Sequence record: OZ413489.1
Length of the DNA stretch: 64,000 nucleotides
Source of the DNA: a phage
Strand: one strand, 5' to 3'
Made by a program: the position numbers and the translations under genes. The notes beneath the pieces were generated by a model. That model saw only the letters and a program-made list of their open reading frames with translations. It had not been told where the DNA came from and made no database searches. Numbering within the stretch: position 1 is the stretch's first letter; each line of letters begins with the position of its first letter. This document shows positions 9,420 to 60,386 of the stretch, piece after piece.

Positions 9420-9990
9420 TTGGCATATCAAGTATAAGGGGGATTTCTAAAATGGATTTCCTCCTTTTGATATTTCACCGGGCCGGATATTTTAAAATTC
9501 TTAGAAAATCAGAAAATGGATCGAAAACTAAAATGGATTTTTCAGAGTAGGCGCGACAAGCTGAATAACTCATCCTATCGTTTGCACCATATTCCAGGCC
9601 ACCATTATAGATTTCCCACACATGCTAACCTCCCTCTACTAGAACTTCCTCCACTTACCCTTGACCTTCTATGGTAACAATCTAACCGCTATCTTGAAGT
9701 TGCTGTGCAGCTTTCCAGGTACTCGATCTACTTTTCATTTCAGGGCTTGGATTTTCTGAAAATTTTTCTCGATAAATTTCTCAGTACTCGATCTGTTTTT
9801 CGTTTTCTGAATCGGATTTTCTGGAAATCGTTCCGGCTCTCGACCTGAAATTTTTGGGGACGAAATCGATTTTTCGTTTTCAGAAATGGATTTTTAAAAT
9901 TTCTATATGGGAATATTTTATGGGATACTGTTTTATAGGAAATTGTTACGGAGGGTAATTAGCGTGCTAATTAAATTTATTAAATGCGAG
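9420..9990. repeat. ORF-free region of degenerate direct repeats
   Basis: Recurring tactcgatct, ggattttctg, tttcgttttc, aaatggattt motifs; no ORF of 60 aa or more. Confidence 0.6.
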
Positions 9991-10938: not shown

Positions 10939-11337
10939 ATGAAAACCACTACCTTTAATTTTGATAATGCAGACTTTTCTTTTTCTGATGTCAAGAACTG
11001 CCGCCGTGATCGTGGATTTTACAAGGCTTATAATCTGGTGGGCCTGGACGATGACAATAATTTGCACGAAGTAGCTGAGATCCGGTATTATGCCGCCGCC
11101 AGCGGTAACACTAACTACTGCGTTTTTTGGATACACGACAACAAGAACAATAAGTACGGTTATACTGGTGGCAAGGCTAGCGGTCACGGTTATGATAAAG
11201 CCAACGCTGCACTTGAAAGCGCATTAAATGCCATGGGAATCACTGCCGACGGCTGGATCTATGAAGAAGAGTTTTTGGCGGCACTTGCTGCCCACCTGGG
11301 CTATAAAAAGCACATTGTAACATGCGCCCACGAATAA
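10939..11337 (+). CDS. hypothetical protein
   Basis: 132-aa ORF, RBS aagagga. Confidence 0.6.
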   Translation: MKTTTFNFDNADFSFSDVKNCRRDRGFYKAYNLVGLDDDNNLHEVAEIRYYAAASGNTNYCVFWIHDNKNNKYGYTGGKASGHGYDKANAALESALNAMGITADGWIYEEEFLAALAAHLGYKKHIVTCAHE

Positions 11338-11347
11338 AAAAAAAATT

Positions 11348-11376
11348 ATTGACACGCTGCAAAATTCAAGTAAACT
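11348..11376 (+). promoter_or_regulatory. sigma70-like promoter (ttgaca-17-taaact)
   Basis: Hexamers upstream of 11425 gene. Confidence 0.5.
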
Positions 11377-11424
11377 AGGCACAAAAGGCGGGAATGTTTC
11401 CCGCCAACACGAAGGAAAAAGATC

Positions 11425-11820
11425 ATGAATAAAAACGTACGCCGCATCATGAACGAACTGGCAAACGATGAAAAAATTATTGATATGCATTTGGTCAACA
11501 TTTGCCGCCGTTGTGTAACATATAACAACCGCGCCGCAAAAGCGCGTGAGATGAACGCAAAAGGCACCTTAAAGCCCTTTCAGGTGGTTGTAAAATCTAT
11601 GACCAGTGCAGCAGGCCAGGCGCATGACCACAACAACGGGAGCACTAATATTGATCCATCTTACGTAATGAAACGGATCCGGACTTGCAAGAATAAAGAG
11701 CAGGTGTATAACGTCATAGATTGGCTGGACTCCCTGGGTGACGTGGTTTACAATAGGTTTTCTGCAGCTATTGAAATTCAGTTAGACAGGTTGGACGGGA
11801 AAGTACTGAAAACTTACTGA
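11425..11820 (+). CDS. hypothetical protein
   Basis: 131-aa ORF. Confidence 0.6.
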   Translation: MNKNVRRIMNELANDEKIIDMHLVNICRRCVTYNNRAAKAREMNAKGTLKPFQVVVKSMTSAAGQAHDHNNGSTNIDPSYVMKRIRTCKNKEQVYNVIDWLDSLGDVVYNRFSAAIEIQLDRLDGKVLKTY

Positions 11821-11822
11821 GT

Positions 11823-11868
11823 TTATTTTTAGATGGCCTTGACTCCAGGGCCATCAATAAAGTAAACT
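11823..11868 (+). promoter_or_regulatory. conserved promoter-stem-loop module, copy 1
   Basis: ttatttttagatggccttgactccagggccatcaataaagtaaact: 7-bp stem gatggcc/ggccatc enclosing ttgact. Confidence 0.6.
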
Positions 11869-11900
11869 AATCCCAGTTAAGCGAAAAAGGAGGCTTGAAG

Positions 11901-12020
11901 ATGAGCACTACACGCCAGCACACAAAGGTAACTATTATCGTTTGCATCATTGGTTATATCCTGGCGCAAATGTTGATGGGTAGCGCTAACGGTGTCGCAA
12001 AATTTTTCTTAAACTTTTAA
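11901..12020 (+). CDS. small hydrophobic peptide (39 aa)
   Basis: RBS aaaggagg; TM-like IIVCIIGYILAQMLMG; below ORF-track cutoff. Confidence 0.4.
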   Translation: MSTTRQHTKVTIIVCIIGYILAQMLMGSANGVAKFFLNF

Positions 12021-12049
12021 TTGACAAGCTAACTTAGATCAGTATACTA
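12021..12049 (+). promoter_or_regulatory. sigma70-like promoter (ttgaca-17-tatact)
   Basis: Hexamers upstream of 12098 gene. Confidence 0.55.
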
Positions 12050-12097
12050 AACACATAAACGGGAAAACTTCCCAGAACACCAAAAGGAGAAAACATT

Positions 12098-12448
12098 ATG
12101 AATACTTCCATCACTATGACCGCCGAAGAAAAAGCCCTGCAGATCGCCGCTCTGAAAAAACAGATTGCAGAACTTGAAGACAAGATCGACAATTTTGAAA
12201 TCGACGAAGACAAATACGACGATAAATATGATGAATGGTTGGACGAGATCTACGGCGAAATTATGATCGGAAACATTTCTTTTCTTCCGTCGCGTATCCT
12301 CAAGGAGCTAGATCCTATCGCTTACCGCTGCGGATTTAGCGACTACATCGACAGCCTGGATATTGAGGACGATGAAGAATACCAGGAATTGCAGACAGAG
12401 CTTGAAGAAGTGAAAGAAGAGCTTGCAGAACTGGAAGAAAACGAGTAA
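12098..12448 (+). CDS. highly acidic coiled-coil protein
   Basis: 116 aa, Asp/Glu-rich with heptad-like N-terminus. Confidence 0.6.
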   Translation: MNTSITMTAEEKALQIAALKKQIAELEDKIDNFEIDEDKYDDKYDEWLDEIYGEIMIGNISFLPSRILKELDPIAYRCGFSDYIDSLDIEDDEEYQELQTELEEVKEELAELEENE

Positions 12449-12450
12449 GA

Positions 12451-12496
12451 TTATTTTTAGATGGCCTTGACTCCAGGGCCATCAATAAAGTAAACT
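12451..12496 (+). promoter_or_regulatory. conserved promoter-stem-loop module, copy 2
   Basis: Identical to copy 1. Confidence 0.6.
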
Positions 12497-12537
12497 TTAT
12501 ACTGTTAACACTGAACTAATGCATAGGAGTTAAAACC

Positions 12538-12783
12538 ATGGCAGCACTAATCACCAAATATTATGCCCCTACCAACACCAAAAGCGCCCGTATCATGGTA
12601 AAAGGCTTCGGACGTAAAAAGGTTTACACTTGGGATTATTCCCTAGACATGGAAGACAACTACACCAACGCGATGACCGATTTTATTAATGAACTAAATA
12701 AGCAGATCTTAACCAATTATAAGGTGACCGACATCGCCTATGTTGGGGAAGGTGGGATCTGTTTTGTCGGTATTGTCAAATAA
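12538..12783 (+). CDS. hypothetical protein
   Basis: 81-aa ORF. Confidence 0.6.
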   Translation: MAALITKYYAPTNTKSARIMVKGFGRKKVYTWDYSLDMEDNYTNAMTDFINELNKQILTNYKVTDIAYVGEGGICFVGIVK

Positions 12784-12835
12784 GCTGTTTTTTCGGTGGT
12801 CCTGGTGGCAGGGCCATCTATAAAGATAGTTTATT
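12784..12835 (+). promoter_or_regulatory. diverged promoter-stem-loop module
   Basis: gtggtcctggtggcagggccatctataaagatag; same layout, different stem. Confidence 0.4.
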
Positions 12836-12858
12836 AACACCATGAAAGGAGAAAGTAC

Positions 12859-13212
12859 ATGATCAGCGGGGCTAGTTTTATTATTGGCGCTATTGCTACA
12901 GCTTTAATTGTAAACAAGATCCAGGATAAAAAGGAAAGAGGAAGTACCGCCCTTGCAGAATATCCATTTTGGACATTCAACGATAACGAAGATTATATTA
13001 TAAAGTATAAAAATAAAGAAGGTGACCAAGTAACACCGCGACCGATCCCGGCTTACAAGATGCAGGAAACACTATACCGCTTGGAGGCAGGGGGCGCAAA
13101 AATTGTGGACTTTTGGGGATACGATCACACAGATCAGGAAGTTATAAAGCGCCGTATCCGGGCTATTCAGGCCAATATTGAAGTTAGCAAGGGGGGAATA
13201 TATGAAGATTAA
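12859..13212 (+). CDS. membrane-anchored hypothetical protein
   Basis: N-terminal TM helix, 117 aa. Confidence 0.6.
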   Translation: MISGASFIIGAIATALIVNKIQDKKERGSTALAEYPFWTFNDNEDYIIKYKNKEGDQVTPRPIPAYKMQETLYRLEAGGAKIVDFWGYDHTDQEVIKRRIRAIQANIEVSKGGIYED

Positions 13213-13399
13213 TTTTGAGAAAATTGTAAAGCGATCTCATGATTCCGAAGAGCTGCCGGAACGCCGCCAGCGTAACAATAAACTGAATAAGCCAAAAAGA
13301 TTTGGGAAGATCTGGCGGAATCATTATGATCGTAAATTGCCGGGCCTCCTTTTGGAACGTGAACGGCAGGCGGAACGATACCGCCACAAAGGCAACTAA
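13202..13399 (+). CDS. small basic protein
   Basis: ATG 13202; Lys/Arg-rich. Confidence 0.4.
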   Translation: MKINFEKIVKRSHDSEELPERRQRNNKLNKPKRFGKIWRNHYDRKLPGLLLERERQAERYRHKGN

Positions 13400-13406
13400 C
13401 AACCAA

Positions 13407-13434
13407 CGCCCCGCCATCGTGCGGGGCTTTTTAT
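13407..13434 (+). terminator. intrinsic terminator
   Basis: gccccgc-loop-gcggggc followed by tttttatt. Confidence 0.65.
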
Positions 13435-13556
13435 TTCTACCCTACGAATAGCGCCCCTGGTTGGCCCCACAACGCCCTAAAAGCCCCCTACCCATGCAAT
13501 CCCATTTCTTAACCTGAAAACATCGTCAAAGGCTGTTTTAAAGCGTTAAAAATATT

Positions 13557-13584
13557 GTTGACATCTAAAATATTCTAGATATAC
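13557..13584 (+). promoter_or_regulatory. sigma70-like promoter (ttgaca-16-tatact)
   Basis: Hexamers upstream of 13621 gene. Confidence 0.55.
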
Positions 13585-13620
13585 TAATCACATCAAAGCG
13601 AGAAGTAAGGAGTAAACGCC

Positions 13621-13881
13621 ATGCGTAAATTAAAAAATTTTGATAAAGTTGATATTGTCCTGAATAATTTTTACTACTGCAATAACAAGGCCGTTTGGTG
13701 GCGTGATAGTTCCACCGATAAAGTCAAGGCGCGCTTTCTCCAGGGGCACTGGCAAGGCCGCCCAGTGATTAAAATCATGGGGCAATTGGTAGCGTTTAAA
13801 AATTGCCGCCGTGTTGATGACGTTGAAGAGATTTTAAACATTTTGCGCCACAATAATTTAAAAAATAGTGTTGACAAGTAA
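13621..13881 (+). CDS. hypothetical protein
   Basis: 86-aa ORF, RBS aaggag. Confidence 0.55.
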   Translation: MRKLKNFDKVDIVLNNFYYCNNKAVWWRDSSTDKVKARFLQGHWQGRPVIKIMGQLVAFKNCRRVDDVEEILNILRHNNLKNSVDK

Positions 13882-13898
13882 ATCTCAATAAGTATAAT
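13871..13898 (+). promoter_or_regulatory. sigma70-like promoter (ttgaca-16-tataat)
   Basis: Consensus hexamers; overlaps 3' end of previous ORF. Confidence 0.55.
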
Positions 13899-13955
13899 TA
13901 AAAACACAGGCGGGAAAACTTCCCGCCACTAACAAAGAAAACAGGAGAAAATATC

Positions 13956-14579
13956 ATGACCACCGTTAACATTACCACAGGTTACAATTTATCTTTCGAC
14001 GTGCTGACCGACGAACAAAAAGAAAAAGCCGTGGAAATGGTCCGCGAAAGAGAAGAACACAGCGGGGATAACTTTTTTGCAGAAAGTGTAATTGAGTACT
14101 ATAAAGAATATGTTTTTCCAGAGTACGGCCTTGAAGATACCGATGTACATTGGTCAGGCTTTTGGTGCCAGGGTGACGGCGCGTCAATCAGTGCGGAAAA
14201 CGTGGATTTAGAAAAATTCTTGCGTAAAGTCAAGTCTCTGACTAAATTCCGCTCAATTCGTCACTTGTTCGGCACAATGCACGATGGCGAGTTATCCGCA
14301 AGTGTTGAGCGTGATCCATATAGCCGCTATAGTCACGAAAACACTGTAAACGGATACATCGATACTACATGGCTAGACCTGACCACCAAACAAGAAAACA
14401 AAGTGGAAGATCTGGAAGAGCTGATCACCGAGACGGTACGGGAGTTATCCCGCAAGGTTTACGTAGACCTGGAGGAGGCCTATCTTGAACAATTCACCGC
14501 CGAAAACTTGATCGGCCTTATCGAGGCCAATGATTGGCGGTTTGATGTCGATGAACACGGTAAGATGACTTTTTCATAA
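13956..14579 (+). CDS. hypothetical protein
   Basis: 207-aa ORF. Confidence 0.65.
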   Translation: MTTVNITTGYNLSFDVLTDEQKEKAVEMVREREEHSGDNFFAESVIEYYKEYVFPEYGLEDTDVHWSGFWCQGDGASISAENVDLEKFLRKVKSLTKFRSIRHLFGTMHDGELSASVERDPYSRYSHENTVNGYIDTTWLDLTTKQENKVEDLEELITETVRELSRKVYVDLEEAYLEQFTAENLIGLIEANDWRFDVDEHGKMTFS

Positions 14580-14667
14580 ATAAAGTGTTGCAATAACCTA
14601 AAAACCTGCTATATTAAAACTCAAGGGGCAAGACGTTTGCCCCACACAAAACAAAGAGGTAAACATT

Positions 14668-15048
14668 ATGAAAAACACTACTAAAGCTATTGACACCGTT
14701 ATGTTTAACCTGGTTACATTCCGTGAAGATATGAAAGATCTTCCACGTGAAACAGTGTGCGATCACATTGAAAACTATCGCAAACTAATCAAAGAGTTGC
14801 CTTTAAAACGTGACCAGTATGCGGCTAACGCTATGCTTAACGCCATGATCAAAAAGATGATTCAGTGTGATTTAACTCTGGCCTATGATTATGCAGGTGG
14901 TCGTTTTGCAGTATACAATCAGCCCGTGCCTGGTATGAGCACCACCGAAGAATTGCACGCGTTAAATCTGAAACAAGATGTATGGGATAACATGCCCCGC
15001 GTGGTGGTGTGGGCAGAAAGCGGAAAGATTTACGGCGATAATTTTTAA
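14668..15048 (+). CDS. hypothetical protein
   Basis: 126-aa ORF. Confidence 0.6.
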   Translation: MKNTTKAIDTVMFNLVTFREDMKDLPRETVCDHIENYRKLIKELPLKRDQYAANAMLNAMIKKMIQCDLTLAYDYAGGRFAVYNQPVPGMSTTEELHALNLKQDVWDNMPRVVVWAESGKIYGDNF

Positions 15049-15112
15049 TCAGGTAACAGGCGGCATATTTGCCGCCTTATTGTTAAACAGAACTGCAAAA
15101 GAGGTACATAGA

Positions 15113-15484
15113 ATGGAATTTATTATTTTGGCTGTAGTAGTTGCCTTGTTCAACGCCTGGATCGCTGGCAAGATAGGTAGATCCGCTTTTCTATGGTTTG
15201 TTATATCTATTTTCCTGGGAGTGGTTGCAACTATTGTATTGGTTATCCTTGCAATTGTTGACAAGGGCGATAATAGAAAGGGTAAAGTGTTTTCCGACCT
15301 GTATGACGCACAAACGTTTGTCAACGCCTATTATAGTGATCTTCCAGTCTCCCTACGCTGCAGCCTGGCACAACAGGTTTTTGATGAGGCTAAAACCAGA
15401 GACCAAGCCCATGAGATATGTTTAACTGAAGCGGATCGCCTATTTGAGAGGAATAGAAAATATGTGGACCAGCCGTTTAAATAA
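15113..15484 (+). CDS. membrane protein (two TM helices)
   Basis: ATG 15113 after aagagg RBS; hydrophobic N-terminal half. Confidence 0.55.
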   Translation: MEFIILAVVVALFNAWIAGKIGRSAFLWFVISIFLGVVATIVLVILAIVDKGDNRKGKVFSDLYDAQTFVNAYYSDLPVSLRCSLAQQVFDEAKTRDQAHEICLTEADRLFERNRKYVDQPFK

Positions 15485-15683
15485 CGCCACGTTAATTAAT
15501 CCCTTTAGTGAAGATTTGAAGCCAGCCGCCTGGCGTGACGGATTCAATAACGAACGCTTTATTTTCAGGCCTGATCTTGAGGAATTTTATAACAATGGAT
15601 CGAACAACAGCGGAGATAATTTTTCTTGTGGTGTGCGTGGTGATAGGACTCCTGGGGGCCATTGTAAACCACGTCACTACTAA
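15462..15683 (+). CDS. hypothetical protein (alternative: overlapping frame 15535..15720 with a TM segment)
   Basis: Two overlapping frames; neither resolvable from sequence alone. Confidence 0.3.
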   Translation: MWTSRLNNATLINPFSEDLKPAAWRDGFNNERFIFRPDLEEFYNNGSNNSGDNFSCGVRGDRTPGGHCKPRHY

Positions 15684-15703
15684 CAGGAGGGAAGGGGGAG
15701 ACG

Positions 15704-15823
15704 ATGACAACCAAAGATAAGCCATGCGCTGATAAGGTGCGCCGTGTTATGGTATGGCTTGAGATTATCGCCCTTGAAATATTGTTAGGCGTAGGGATGT
15801 ACTTTATCGCTGTAAGTAACTAA
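15704..15823 (+). CDS. small membrane peptide (39 aa)
   Basis: RBS aggaggg; hydrophobic core; terminator immediately downstream. Confidence 0.4.
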   Translation: MTTKDKPCADKVRRVMVWLEIIALEILLGVGMYFIAVSN

Positions 15824-15825
15824 GA

Positions 15826-15856
15826 GCGGCCCCCGATCATGGGGGCCTATCTTTTA
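15826..15856 (+). terminator. intrinsic terminator
   Basis: ggccccc-gatcat-gggggcc followed by T-run. Confidence 0.65.
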
Positions 15857-15961
15857 AAAAATTTTTCTTCCGGGGTGTTGCAATCCGGTCCGGAATGTGG
15901 ATAATAACAATCAACGGGGAGCTAATCCCCACCACCACAAAAACCAGAAAGGAGAAACAAA

Positions 15962-16162
15962 ATGAGCAACAATATCCGCGTTATTAACTTCAAAAAAGAA
16001 GAAAAAATTGCCGTGCTGATTGACGGTCAAGAAATCTTCAAGGGCGACTATGAAGATCATCAAACGGCGATTAGTATCACTCGCGTGATTGGTTATCATA
16101 ATTTCTACCCCCAAGGCGCTGAGGCAGCAGTTAAACGAATCAAAGAGATTGTAGGCCTGTAA
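15962..16162 (+). CDS. hypothetical protein
   Basis: 66-aa ORF, RBS aaaggagaaa. Confidence 0.6.
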   Translation: MSNNIRVINFKKEEKIAVLIDGQEIFKGDYEDHQTAISITRVIGYHNFYPQGAEAAVKRIKEIVGL

Positions 16163-16165
16163 AAT

Positions 16166-16210
16166 TTATTTTTAGATGGCCTTGACTTCAGGGCCATCGA
16201 TAAAGTAAAT
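16166..16210 (+). promoter_or_regulatory. conserved promoter-stem-loop module, copy 3
   Basis: tttatttttagatggccttgacttcagggccatcgataaagtaaat. Confidence 0.6.
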
Positions 16211-16255
16211 TTAAACCCTGTTAAAATACCACGCAGTTAACAAGGAGTGATAGAC

Positions 16256-16555
16256 ATGTTTATCCAGGCTAATAATCTTTATTTCTTTGATGGTCAGATC
16301 GTAGATGGTGTGGAAGTGGAGATCACCGGGTGCCCTGGCGGTCAGGCTATGACTTTTCGGAATAATGCCTTTGATGATTCTCATATCGTTATAAGAATGG
16401 AAGTTACGAAGCTGGACGACAAGAAAACACTTATTGACTATTCTGTGAAAGATCATCCAGACTACCGCATGATCCATGGTGATTTGTGCATTGTTGACCG
16501 TGACAAGGTGGGCGGCATTGTGATCGCTATTGTGAACGATGTTTTCTCAAACTAA
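16256..16555 (+). CDS. hypothetical protein
   Basis: ATG 16256 after aaggag RBS. Confidence 0.6.
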   Translation: MFIQANNLYFFDGQIVDGVEVEITGCPGGQAMTFRNNAFDDSHIVIRMEVTKLDDKKTLIDYSVKDHPDYRMIHGDLCIVDRDKVGGIVIAIVNDVFSN

Positions 16556-16572
16556 TTTCAGCAGGCGATTTT

Positions 16573-16923
16573 ATGAAAGTCAAACTATATTACCTTAATG
16601 AGCTTAACCCCCTTGCCCAGGTCCGCGCCCTAGCTAATACCTTGATTTGTGAGAAATCTGTATATTGTGTTGAGCTTAACGCCATGCGTGAACGTCTCAA
16701 AGGTGGTTACTTTGACATCCATGCTGCAATCAACGGCCTGAATATGGAATTTATACGCTTACGTAACAGCCGCCGGAATCTGGCAAGAATGGAACAAGAT
16801 CCGGCCCACCTTCGTAAACTGGTTATTGAAAATCATCTGATGTTTAATGCCGAGGGGGATTATTACCATTTTCACCGCAAACGCTGGTACCGTGGCGGCA
16901 ATACAGGCAAGAATGCAAAATAA
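16573..16923 (+). CDS. hypothetical protein
   Basis: 116-aa ORF. Confidence 0.6.
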   Translation: MKVKLYYLNELNPLAQVRALANTLICEKSVYCVELNAMRERLKGGYFDIHAAINGLNMEFIRLRNSRRNLARMEQDPAHLRKLVIENHLMFNAEGDYYHFHRKRWYRGGNTGKNAK

Positions 16924-16957
16924 GGCCCCTAGCAGGGCCTGCAGCAATATAATCACA

Positions 16958-16992
16958 TAAAGGCCATGCGGTTGCATGGCCTTTATTATTTT
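16958..16992 (+). terminator. intrinsic terminator
   Basis: aggccatgc-ggtt-gcatggcct followed by ttattatttt. Confidence 0.6.
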
Positions 16993-17048
16993 GGCGTTAC
17001 AACGGCATACGGGGCGCTTAAAAAATTTTTAAAGAAGTACTTGCATCA

Positions 17049-17530
17049 TTCCCGACAATATGGATAATAAGAGTTGTCGAGGGGGAGGCCCCCAATCGTT
17101 GACCAGATAGATAGGAGTTAAAATCATGGCTATTGTTACCGCTGGCTATCTTCAAAGATGCGGAAGCAAAACAACGCCGGATCTCAATACATGAGATCAT
17201 CAACCTTAACGCTGGAGGCACACCATACCGCCCAGGACCTGGCCGTGAGATGGACAATACGCTAGCGATCCTGAAGATACGCCGTAAACGGTCCTCCCTT
17301 ACTCTGGACTCATTACACACAATGCAGCCTCCGTTCCAGGTGACCGGGAAACGGATCGCCAGGTCCTGGACAAAGGCCAATGATCGGACCGTATAAATAA
17401 AAGTGTTTTGGTACTGATTTTGGGGTTGACTTGTTCGGCCCCTTTTGCTATTCTTATTAAACGGGCGGCACTTGGGAACAGGGGGAGACAATCACCGGGC
17501 CTGCCTGTCATATAAGAACTATAAAAACCG
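17049..17530 (+). other. promoter-driven GC-rich leader region: candidate 22-aa leader ORF or structured RNA
   Basis: ttgcat-16-gataat promoter at 17049-17076; 22-aa ORF at 17126 with aggag RBS; both long ORFs here look non-protein-like. Confidence 0.35.
17486..17508. repeat. 23-nt inverted-repeat arm, right
   Basis: ggagacaatcaccgggcctgcc is the reverse complement of 10045-10067. Confidence 0.75.
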
Positions 17531-18859: not shown

Positions 18860-19125
18860 AATAAGGCAACTATGCAAACGAATGGCATGGCGCGACGGAG
18901 TCGCGACATAATATAAAAGCAGTAACCATCACCCCCGTGATAGTTTGTCTGCAAACTATTAATCAGATCATAGTTGCCTTGTATTTAGTTAATCATGACA
19001 TGACAAGCAAGGCAACTATAGATCTGCTAATAGTTGCCCTGCTTTTATATTATGTCATGCTAATTATAATCAGTGCGATTATTGTCATGTATAATTATTG
19101 TCATGCAAACGAATGGCATGGCTGA
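18860..19125. repeat. array of aaggcaactat motifs in both orientations plus duplicated gcaaacgaatggcatggc
   Basis: Copies near 18863, 18970 (inverted), 19009, 19031 (inverted variant); 18-mer at 18874 and 19106; cgcgac-ggag-tcgcg palindrome. Confidence 0.6.
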
Positions 19126-19230: not shown

Positions 19231-19364
19231 GTGTCAGTTAGGTCACATTATGTCAGACAAGTTTTTCTCCTCTTTGTCAAGTGCTGCATGAAAAATTTAC
19301 AAGCTTGTATGGTAGCATTTTTGCGGCCCTGTTTACATTCAGTAATGTATGTATAATCCTTGTT

Positions 19365-19527
19365 GTGTGGGCGTTTAGACGTCTAGACGGTTGGAAGTCC
19401 ACAGGTCAATATCTAATCTATCGGCTGCTAACTATATCCCACACATGTGTGGGCGTTTAGACGTCTAGACGGTTGGAAGTCCACAGGTCAATATCTAATC
19501 TATCGGCTGCTAACTATATCCCACACA
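19365..19527 (+). repeat. perfect tandem duplication of an 81-bp unit (82-bp period)
   Basis: Unit gtgtgggcg...tagacgtcta...cccacaca twice; 7-bp terminal inverted repeat gtgtggg/cccacac; tataat hexamer at 19351-19356. Confidence 0.8.
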
Positions 19528-60288: not shown

Positions 60289-60386
60289 AACGGATACTAT
60301 TAACTGTCCGTGATACGGACACTACTGTCCGTCACGCGGACACATCTGCCCGTAATACGGACACTAACTGTCCGTGATACGGACAC
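60289..60386 (+). promoter_or_regulatory. array of four palindromic operators (ctgtccgt-N3-acggacac)
   Basis: Copies at 60304-60322, 60325-60343, 60346-60364, 60368-60386; 21-22 bp centre-to-centre. Confidence 0.7.

Follow-up and report, generated by a model that had tools for sequence, protein, structure and literature searches.

The window analysed here, a 64-kb stretch of a Vequintavirus (rV5-like coliphage) genome, contains four copies of a conserved hairpin of about 20 bp that folds on the sense-strand RNA between small genes. With moderate confidence, we consider this element best read as an intercistronic mRNA processing or stability signal. The hairpin has been kept through compensatory change, also where the promoter-like hexamers coinciding with it have been lost or displaced.

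Results

Four copies of an intergenic module

A 45-nt string was found exactly at positions 11823 and 12451 and with three mismatches at 16166, as against a chance expectation of 0.00 in window shuffles. A looser pattern, a repeat search, an nhmmer profile and a covariance model all identified a diverged copy at about 12781–12835 with 67% identity. This bears out the recurrence described in an earlier note on this DNA, which had listed three near-identical copies and a diverged one at 12784. Searches of the 64-kb window by nhmmer, repeat search and the covariance model with its filters off yielded no further copies; all four lie within 4.4 kb.

The placement between small genes given in the earlier note also holds, as every copy is flanked by small plus-strand ORFs. 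Each begins at the stop codon of the upstream ORF and is followed 15–45 nt downstream by an SD sequence and a start codon. The first base of copy 1 is the last base of the TGA of ORF 11425–11820; copy 2 (core 12451–12493, the same as copy 1 across 45 nt) and copy 3 follow the TAA of ORFs 12098–12448 and 15962–16162, respectively; and the lower stem of copy 4 contains the stop codon of ORF 12538–12783. The repeat unit extends from the stop codon to about 20 nt beyond the hairpin.

Table 1. Coordinates of the hairpin copies, promoter-like hexamers and flanked cassettes in the window.
Feature	Position	Strand	Evidence or remark
Copy 1 hairpin	11820–11868	+	RNA fold (-25.1 kcal/mol, z -6.8); covariance model (84.7 bits)
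Copy 1 lower stem	11820–11829/11859–11868	+	RNA fold
Copy 1 internal loop	11830–11831 and 11856–11858	+	RNA fold
Copy 1 upper stem	11832–11841/11846–11855	+	RNA fold
Copy 1 tetraloop ACUC	11842–11845	+	RNA fold
Copy 1 sigma70-like TTGACT, 18 nt, TAAACT	11839–11868	+	Consensus scan, 9/12; TTGACT 11839–11844, TAAACT 11863–11868
Cassette between copies 1 and 2	11869–12446	+	Absent from five relatives and one viral contig
39-aa ORF, copy 1–2 cassette	11901–12020	+	
Consensus promoter TTGACA-N16-TATACT with 5′ hairpin, copy 1–2 cassette	12021–12048	+	
116-aa ORF, copy 1–2 cassette	12098–12448	+	
Copy 2 hairpin	12447–12497	+	45-nt match; RNA fold (-21.1 kcal/mol, z -4.9); covariance model (83.8 bits)
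Copy 2 sigma70-like hexamers	12467–12496	+	Arrangement as in copy 1
Cassette between copies 2 and 4	12498–12783	+	81-aa ORF 12538–12783; absent from 241Ecol014PP
Copy 4 hairpin (diverged)	12779–12835	+	Looser pattern; repeat search; RNA fold (-28.4 kcal/mol, z -7.1); covariance model (75.3 bits)
Copy 3 hairpin	16162–16212	+	Near-match; RNA fold (-24.7 kcal/mol, z -6.6); covariance model (78.6 bits)
Copy 3 sigma70-like hexamers	16182–16211	+	Second hexamer TAAATT

The module folds as a bipartite hairpin on the sense strand

The RNA hairpin of about 20 bp is bipartite: an AU-rich lower stem of 10 bp is joined through a 2 × 3 internal loop to a GC-rich upper stem, likewise of 10 bp, which ends in a tetraloop. 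The upper stem measures 10 bp in every copy and in the general description includes one U-G pair, while the lower stem varies from 10 to 14 bp. The 7-bp stem of the earlier note is therefore replaced by these two longer ones. Copy 3 has an ACUU loop and differs from copy 1 by a compensatory G-C to A-U change at the base of the lower stem; in copy 4 the lower stem measures 14 bp, the 10-bp upper stem contains two G-U pairs and the loop is GUGG. On the plus strand the four copies fold with dG values of -21 to -28 kcal/mol (z -4.9 to -7.1). The minus strand folds far more weakly, at -16.8 and -9.2 kcal/mol (the latter for copy 4), and the covariance model assigns 75–85 bits to the plus strand against 31–41 bits to the minus strand.

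No match in Rfam 15 reached its gathering score, the best overlap being with rhtB (23.1 bits versus 55, E 3.1). An intrinsic (Rho-independent) terminator was ruled out by the absence of a U-tract after the stem on either strand, both strands having a T-rich run before the stem and an A-rich run after it; a terminator scan listed none of the copies.

Compensatory change maintains the RNA structure

RNAalifold recovered the 10 + 10 bp structure from 33 distinct copies in 16 genomes. In this set the upper helix was 100% paired, with four pairs alternating between Watson-Crick and G-U, and both sides had changed in lower-helix pairs 8-54, 9-53, 11-51 and 12-50. Pairing held in 91% of the cells, as against 37–53% when the 3′ partners were slid by one to three columns, and in 98.6% against 34–58% for 42 distinct copies from 20 sources; shuffle statistics are inflated here by the close relatedness of the aligned copies, and independent compensatory events are few, namely the paralogue splits and two or three within copy 4 orthologues. 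About 111 cells of the 42-copy set are G-U on the plus strand and A-C mismatches on the opposite strand.

Two cases separate the hairpin from the promoter-like hexamers. CTGGTG occupies the -35 place of copy 4 in 119 of the 119 genomes carrying that copy. The loop and internal loop of copy 1 in the metagenomic contig L061 measure 5 and 4 nt, which sets its hexamers 20 nt apart; this copy still folds despite the altered loops (-22.6 kcal/mol, z -5.4). Since the hairpin is kept in copy 4 and in L061 while the -35 or its spacing is lost, selection acts on the sense-strand RNA structure and not on a promoter.

The same observations bear on a DNA palindrome read as an operator, at which a dimeric DNA-binding protein of the phage or host would repress or activate the overlapping promoter. 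The -35 lies at the centre of the inverted repeat GATGGCC...GGCCATC, which is strongly conserved in about 120 genomes, as such a site would be. However, the differences between copies preserve RNA pairing through one-strand G-U pairs and double changes in the AU arms, neither of which an operator needs; folding is also largely asymmetric between the strands, and L061 retains the stems with loop and internal-loop lengths altered. We therefore regard an operator as very improbable.

Distribution in relatives

About 120 sequenced relatives retain copies at the same positions, and their whole genomes hold three near-identical places and one diverged place. The modules are mostly 95–100% identical among relatives, compared with 88–98% for the genes that they flank; a flanking 131-aa gene is restricted to Vequintavirus. 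The exact core was present in one IMG/VR contig, and a 16-base conserved half-site, CAGGGCCATCNATAAAG, occurred in 18 viral and more than 120 metagenome stretches. Among these half-site contigs the covariance model accepted only L022/L025/L061, L075 and L098, the accepted contigs bearing the module set at Vequintavirus-like spacing; the remaining matches were rejected by the model and represent chance 16-mers.

Could the copies be functionless duplicated intergenic DNA, left behind by past duplication or insertion of cassettes and homogenised by gene conversion? In keeping with that origin, copies 1 and 2 are identical, paralogues have polymorphisms in common and the repeat unit has the extent described above. 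Yet the modules are more conserved than the flanked genes, copy 4 folds better than the other copies at only 67% identity, and compensatory changes are found among the copy 4 orthologues too, which makes lack of function hard to credit.

Promoter-like hexamers in copies 1–3

In copy 1, TTGACT and TAAACT are 18 nt apart, in agreement with the -35-like and -10-like hexamers and the spacing in the earlier note. The "-35" is split between stem (TTG) and loop (ACT), and the "-10" is the 3′ arm of the lower stem. In phage genomes TTGAC is invariant in copies 1–3, with T, G or A at the sixth position and thus the consensus TTGACA in some. PhagePromoter predictions exist in the Gotham record for its orthologues of copies 2 and 3, whereas the rV5 record, with its 33 promoters and Table S4, has none at these sites. 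The class of 9/12 matches with an 18-nt spacer is close to chance in the window (36 found versus 24 expected in the consensus scan), while genuine-looking promoters nearby match at 10–12 of 12 positions with 16–17-nt spacers. Hence, of the promoter reading, the hexamers stand in copies 1–3, but they are 9/12 matches of a near-chance class, copy 4 has no -35 and the spacing in L061 is 20 nt. Judged from these sequences, copies 1–3 may double as weak internal promoters.

Deletions between copies remove flanked genes

ECP32, ECP26, phiWec189, ime, magaca and one IMG/VR contig lack the two-gene cassette between copies 1 and 2, whose genes belong to PHROGs without assigned function. For the 81-aa gene between copies 2 and 4, homologues at 35–44% identity occur in unrelated phages. 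Each deletion junction is a single chimeric module: a copy 1 × copy 2 chimera in 5 of about 119 phage records and one viral contig, and a copy 2 × copy 4 chimera in one record (241Ecol014PP). Some of these junctions could be assembly collapses. No deletion involving copy 3 was inferred among relatives because nearly all complete genomes retain three places. The copies are genuine recombination points: they constitute direct repeats of about 50 bp, so that phage recombination between them deletes the flanked genes. The polymorphisms common to paralogous copies suggest exchange between them.

The earlier note had likened the modules to stem-loops proposed to mediate cassette shuffling in T4-type phages and had suggested that the small genes are modular and exchangeable. 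Deletions at module junctions support the former in part, but no swaps were seen and other indels in the region lack modules at their ends. Exchangeability found no support: in a comparison for different genes at module-flanked slots, the relatives showed presence or absence only, with no gene replaced and no slot holding a different gene.

Comparison with PeSLs of T4-type phages

PeSLs (promoter-early stem-loops), known from T4-type phages (Arbiol et al. 2010, PMC2839356; Comeau et al. 2014, PMC4122927), run from a stop codon through an AT-rich tract and a stem-loop that overlaps a sigma70-like -35 to an SD sequence and an ATG (PMC2839356). The rV5-like element has a matching anatomy. It is intergenic, with the upstream stop codon in an AT-rich tract and an SD sequence and ATG downstream; its 10-bp upper stem encloses the -35-like hexamer, so that the stem-loop can overlap it, and its lower stem holds the -10-like one. 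G-T pairs occur within the stems, the copies lie among small genes without assigned function, and recombination between copies removes the intervening genes, some indels between close relatives being bounded by the motifs. In contrast to PeSLs, the element resides in a Vequintavirus and not a T4-type phage and has no sequence homology to them; it is present in four copies within 4.4 kb and not in dozens over hyperplastic regions, and it forms a long bipartite 20-bp hairpin with no terminator tail in place of a short GGGG/CCCC stem. Its hairpin is conserved where the promoter is lost, and only deletions, not swaps, are seen. The likeness drawn in the earlier note is thus partly supported: anatomy and module-bounded deletions agree, while copy number, the lack of swaps and a hairpin kept without a promoter do not. 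It is one of sequence and structure. A literature search found nothing connecting PeSLs with rV5-like phages.

These comparisons leave a PeSL-type cassette boundary as a possible but doubtful explanation, in which an early sigma70 promoter with its -35 in a stem-loop that attenuates read-through would start the next gene, and the module would provide homology for shuffling. The anatomy, the invariant TTGAC with its TTGACA variants, the Gotham predictions, the module-bounded deletions and the exchange suggested by common polymorphisms all favor it. It is set back by hexamers matching near chance frequency next to better promoters, by the compensatory retention of the hairpin in copy 4 and L061, by the missing U-tract, which precludes intrinsic termination, and by the few clustered copies and lack of gene replacements.

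Two other classes of element share single features with the module. Like REP-type and operon-internal 3′ barriers, it is a stable intergenic operon hairpin that could make the upstream segment differ in stability, but REP elements have another consensus and are repeats of the host chromosome. Like moron boundary elements, it accompanies cassettes bearing their own expression signals, but the definition of a moron requires both a promoter and a terminator, and the rV5-like element has no terminator.

Resemblance to T7 RNase III sites

Dunn and Studier (1983) reportedly described the RNase III signals R0.3, R0.5, R1, R1.1 and R1.3 in the T7 early region. We folded T7 intergenic regions at coordinates that we take to be these sites, the T7 record used having no such annotation. 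The folds revealed comparable GC-rich upper stems of 9–13 bp, and a flanking lower stem was present in the three folds that span both sides.

T7 early mRNA has five RNase III signals; the ideal RNase III substrate is 22 bp, and an internal loop at the target leads to single-strand cleavage and a stabilising 3′ hairpin (PMC3867540). At least 11 bp are required between tetraloop and cut, and the rules for R1.1 call for a distal box with UA and then UG adjoining the loop and for AU at proximal-box position 2, where G-C and C-G are excluded; every distal-box substitution tested in uR1.1 lowered binding (PMC1540722). The rV5-like hairpin spans about two helical turns (10 + 10 bp) with a central 2 × 3 internal loop, and its 10-bp upper stem plus one non-Watson-Crick position provides the 11-bp distance. 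Copies 1–3 have the U27-A34 and U26-G35 pairs of the distal box and the A20-U41 pair at proximal-box position 2 that the rules require; the middle box is C-G and G-C, and a non-Watson-Crick pair occupies position 11. Proximal-box positions 1 and 3 are U-A and G-C, whereas the preferred pairs are G-C and A-U, and in copy 4 the pairs at position 2 are C-G in the distal box and G-U in the proximal box. The U-A/U-G distal box corresponds to the TT of the -35 hexamer in copies 1–3; because these are the same bases, its conservation does not discriminate between RNase III and a promoter.

The geometry and part of the sequence thus resemble the T7 R1.1 site. Common to both are a GC-rich upper stem (about 10 bp) capped by a tetraloop, an asymmetric internal loop in the centre, an AU-rich lower stem and the pairs adjoining the loop; both would lie at intercistronic sites in early mRNA that the host polymerase transcribes, and T7 too has promoters within the same intergenic spaces. 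Unlike the T7 signals, to which it has no sequence homology, the rV5-like element deviates at proximal-box positions 1 and 3, its lower stem overlaps the upstream stop codon, and its cleavage is predicted from structure. By analogy, the central internal loop predicts a T7-type single cleavage.

A simple 3′-exonuclease barrier or an attenuator would also fit the structure. As an alternative to RNase III, a U-tract-independent or factor-dependent attenuator, or a barrier, would act on RNA polymerase or on PNPase/RNase II. A stable, conserved sense-strand hairpin right after a stop codon suits such a role, and PeSL stem-loops are reported to terminate in reporter assays (PMC2839356). Nevertheless, no copy has a U-rich tail, and an AU lower stem with a central internal loop over two helical turns exceeds what a barrier needs; the upper stem alone would suffice, yet the lower stem undergoes compensatory change. 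This alternative therefore seems improbable to us.

Discussion

In the processing reading that we prefer, the module is primarily a sense-strand RNA structure that would be transcribed within the polycistronic mRNA of the upstream early gene and would most likely act post-transcriptionally, as an intercistronic processing or stability signal. Consensus promoters at 11349, 12021 and 15878 lie upstream of hairpins with no terminator in between. Host RNase III would cut the 3′ side of the internal loop, as in T7 R1.1, leaving an upstream message that ends in the stable upper hairpin and by the same cut freeing the downstream message. Against this reading, terminating ribosomes would melt the lower stem, in which the stop codon lies. 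The sigma70-like hexamers of three of the four copies would be possible extra weak promoters that are dispensable, and recombination between the direct-repeat copies deletes the genes between them.

A more speculative and rather unlikely reading is that the same ~50 nt are used twice, as a weak sigma70 promoter on the DNA and as an RNase III-type hairpin on read-through RNA, forming a self-insulating boundary. If so, upstream messages would be cut and hairpin-capped where new transcripts can start, cutting could depend on a ribosome terminating at the stop codon in the lower stem, and the boundary would also supply homology for losing or regaining flanked genes. The module would then represent a PeSL-like system of independent origin outside the T4 group.

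The finding carries a caution, as promoter-like hexamers in a repeat can arise as a by-product of RNA structure, and these sites already figure as promoters in public records on prediction alone. The modules also mark natural points of loss of accessory genes, which aids genome engineering and helps to interpret assemblies. Candidates for therapy and biocontrol are widely drawn from rV5-like phages; our literature search found no transcription start-site, transcriptome, end-mapping or rnc-mutant study of Vequintavirus or Vequintavirinae. A conserved, structure-supported RNA element at cistron boundaries makes the processing of their early polycistronic messages accessible to testing.

Four intergenic elements in the early accessory-gene region

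Searched with region 11000-17000, 124 phage records align at identities of 93-98.5%; every one is a Vequintavirus (rV5-like myophages of E. coli), and Escherichia phage MaxTheCat is the closest match. The modules sit in the early accessory-gene region, the counterpart of rV5 ORFs 176-209. This region is a series of small plus-strand ORFs assigned to PHROGs of unknown function, the exception being a T7 gp1.1-like ORF of 65 aa, which scores above the curated threshold for Pfam Phage_1_1 (the T7 gp1.1 family). A 45-nt string is exact in copies 1 and 2 and carries three mismatches in copy 3, in agreement with the recurrence described in the earlier note; dinucleotide-preserving shuffles yielded zero matches to it. 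The diverged fourth copy (67% identical) was also recovered by a looser pattern, a repeat finder, an nhmmer profile and an unfiltered covariance model, and these same searches revealed no further copy in the 64 kb. The -35-like TTGACT and -10-like TAAACT hexamers and their 18-nt spacing were confirmed as previously given. In every case the element opens at the upstream ORF's stop codon, and an SD sequence and then a start codon follow 15-45 nt after it.

Other repeats were observed in the window. A stretch poor in ORFs contains a perfect 82-nt tandem duplication, adjoined by a long inverted repeat forming a 24-bp hairpin; this stretch is probably the 'non-coding' box of the rV5 map and may be an origin or other cis-acting region. 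Four tandem 21-22-nt units, each with a hairpin GTCCGT-N3-ACGGAC, make up the most stable local fold of the window on both strands. A further repeat, ~47 nt long and present three times at spacings of 65 and 74 nt, precedes the early gene cluster.

Window coordinates of modules, ORFs and other features
Feature	Position	Remark
Module copy 1	11823	45-nt string
Module copy 2	12451	45-nt string
Module copy 4	~12781-12835	diverged
Module copy 3	16166	45-nt string, three mismatches
131-aa ORF	11425-11820	upstream of copy 1
81-aa ORF	12538-12783	between copies 2 and 4
65-aa ORF	13202-13399	T7 gp1.1-like
Promoter plus hairpin	11349-11405, 12021-12074, 13871-13927, 14588-14643, 15878-15934	near-consensus sigma70
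~47-nt repeat	9709-9894	three copies
Tandem duplication and inverted repeat	19364-19527 and 18965-19056
Tandem 21-22-nt units	60301-60386	four units

The element folds as a long RNA hairpin with covarying pairs

A 7-bp stem had been proposed for the module. RNA folding of the plus strand instead gave a single long imperfect hairpin in every copy. From its base upward, this hairpin consists of an AU-rich lower stem of 10-14 bp, an internal loop with 2 nt on one side and 3 nt on the other, a GC-rich upper stem of 10 bp that includes G-U pairs, and a capping tetraloop. On this strand the four copies fold at -21 to -28 kcal/mol (z-scores -4.9 to -7.1). The minus strand folds far more weakly (-16.8 kcal/mol for copy 1 and -9.2 kcal/mol for copy 4), and the covariance model scored 75-85 bits on the plus strand versus 31-41 bits on the minus strand. 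The G-U pairs and this strand asymmetry point to sense-strand RNA. No Rfam family was matched by the element. Nor does it look like a terminator, since on either strand the stem comes after a T-rich stretch and before an A-rich one.

The 57-nt module was found in 121 phage records, every one a Vequintavirus, at three places per complete genome, and copy 4 once per genome in 119 records. We aligned 33 distinct 66-nt copy sequences from 16 genomes, for which RNAalifold returned a 10+10 bp structure. In this alignment, all cells of the upper helix (100%) are paired, with four pairs alternating between Watson-Crick and G-U, and four lower-helix pairs show two-sided changes (GC/AU/GU, UA/CG, UA/GU/AU/GC and AU/UA). 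The structure itself has 91% of cells paired, as against 37-53% when the 3' partners are slid by 1-3 columns. Part of the compensatory events divides paralogues, such as copies 1, 3 and 4, while others fall among copy 4 orthologues, such as the change of pair 9-53 from C-G to U-A. When metagenomic copies were included, the set grew to 42 distinct sequences (20 sources), in which pairing holds for 98.6% of cells and drops to 34-58% after sliding; this alignment is model-fitted, which favours the structure. Shuffle statistics overstate significance, since the independent events are few and the genomes are near relatives; despite the few events, the covariation evidence is consistent in pointing one way. 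Copy 1 of the Gotham record (MT682716, 5540-5600) lacks six 3'-arm bases (AGGGCC), so that neither its hairpin nor the spacing of its hexamers survives.

Promoter or hairpin

The hexamers are built into the hairpin: of the '-35', TTG belongs to the upper stem and ACT to the loop, and the '-10' makes up the lower stem's 3' arm. Copy 4 has CTGGTG in place of the TTGACT of copies 1-3, yet forms the most stable hairpin of all. In a more diverged metagenomic Vequintavirus contig, the loop of copy 1 is 5 nt long and the 3' side of its internal loop 4 nt, which sets the hexamers 20 nt apart (15 nt with an alternative -10); the hairpin of this copy is intact (-22.6 kcal/mol, z -5.4). In copies 1-3 the hexamers agree with the consensus at 9 of 12 positions and are 18 nt apart, and hits as good number 36 in 10.5 kb versus 24 expected by chance. 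The neighbouring promoters listed in the rV5 paper match at 10-12 of 12 positions with 16-17-nt spacers; the modules are absent from that list. Counting for a promoter, TTGAC is invariant across copies 1-3 of the phage genomes (the sixth position being T, G or A), and the Gotham record carries PhagePromoter predictions at copies 2 and 3. On these sequence comparisons, we take the hairpin to be what selection maintains; copies 1-3 may also act as promoters, but such activity is not required.

A second, distinct promoter-plus-hairpin architecture consists of near-consensus sigma70 promoters, each with a short GC-rich hairpin ~10-20 nt on. Their sequences are TTGACA-N16-TATACT, TATAAT or TAAACT, with TTGCAA-N16-TATATT or GATAAT as weaker forms; one example of the hairpin, GGGAAAACTTCCC, was found twice. 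These sites likely give rise to transcripts with 5'-end hairpins.

Recombination footprints at the modules

The genes of 39 aa and 116 aa between copies 1 and 2 are missing from ECP32, ECP26, phiWec189, ime, magaca and an IMG/VR contig (L003), and in all six a single module joins the left flank of copy 1 to the right flank of copy 2. The ORF upstream of copy 1 has two allelic forms in Vequintavirus (131 or 134 aa; amino-acid identities of about 86% and 96-99% among genomes), a sign of mosaic recombination stopping at the module. The copy 1/copy 2 deletions occur on both alleles, which suggests at least two events. 241Ecol014PP lacks the 81-aa gene; its crossover lies within the common CAGGGCCATC.ATAAAG, and its chimeric lower stem has two mismatches, at covarying positions. 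Polymorphisms (A at loop position 3, loop TT and internal-loop G) reappear in different paralogues, consistent with exchange between copies. Homologues of the 81-aa ORF at 35-44% identity are present in unrelated phages, namely Seuratvirus (CAjan, Greed), Pseudomonas KIL-like phages and Klebsiella podophages, and this small gene has therefore spread horizontally.

Two unverified 'Campylobacter phage' records (MG065666 and MG065654) start inside a module; the repeats therefore break assemblies and, as with copy 1 of Gotham, can distort them, and a share of the apparent deletions could be assembly collapses. Several indels are not module-bounded: 16563-16913 in five phages (V18, Gotham, V5, BP9 and PDX), with ORF 16573-16923 absent; two large deletions in rV5_ev146 (11418-11913 and 13347-17490); and an indel or replacement in the slot of ORF 14668-15048 in ECP32, ECP26 and phiWec189, where the annotated CDS is 417 nt versus 381 nt, compared by annotation length only. 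As to the proposed exchangeable cassettes, no module-flanked slot holds a different gene among the relatives compared.

Relation to PeSLs and RNase III signals

The likeness to promoter-early stem-loops (PeSLs) of T4-type phages drawn in the earlier note holds for module anatomy and recombination footprints. It fails in that the window phage lacks many dispersed copies and the promoter is weak or missing in some modules; the modules are not homologous to PeSLs. In the literature searched, neither PeSLs nor RNase III signals are reported for rV5-like phages.

The RNA anatomy of the modules resembles the RNase III signals of T7 early mRNA, with two helical turns of duplex and a central internal loop. 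An ideal RNase III substrate has 22 bp; internal loops confine cleavage to a single strand, after which a stabilising 3' hairpin remains, and five sites of this kind occur in T7 early mRNA (PMC3867540). For one of them, R1.1, the minimal-substrate rule is a tetraloop-to-cut distance of at least 11 bp. Its distal box adjoining the loop is U-A then U-G, a 2-bp middle box comes next, and the proximal box reads G-C, A-U or U-A, A-U, A-U or U-A; binding is inhibited when the second proximal-box pair is G-C or C-G, and enhanced reactivity is reported for a middle-box G-C substitution (PMC1540722). We aligned the upper stem to R1.1 using the numbering of PMC1540722 and the T7 sequence. Copies 1-3 share a distal box of U-A and U-G, a middle box of C-G and G-C, G-C at the position after it, A-U as the second proximal-box pair and, at position 11, a non-Watson-Crick pair. 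They depart from the preferred pairs at positions 1 and 3 of the proximal box, and copy 4 deviates at position 2 of the distal box. The likeness does not amount to a demonstration, and it is confounded by overlap: the U's of the distal box double as the TT of the -35 hexamer. Since consensus promoters lie upstream of the hairpins (11349, 12021 and 15878) with no terminator in between, the hairpins should be embedded in polycistronic early transcripts, where the predicted cut would fall on the 3' side of the internal loop, at 11856-11858 for copy 1.
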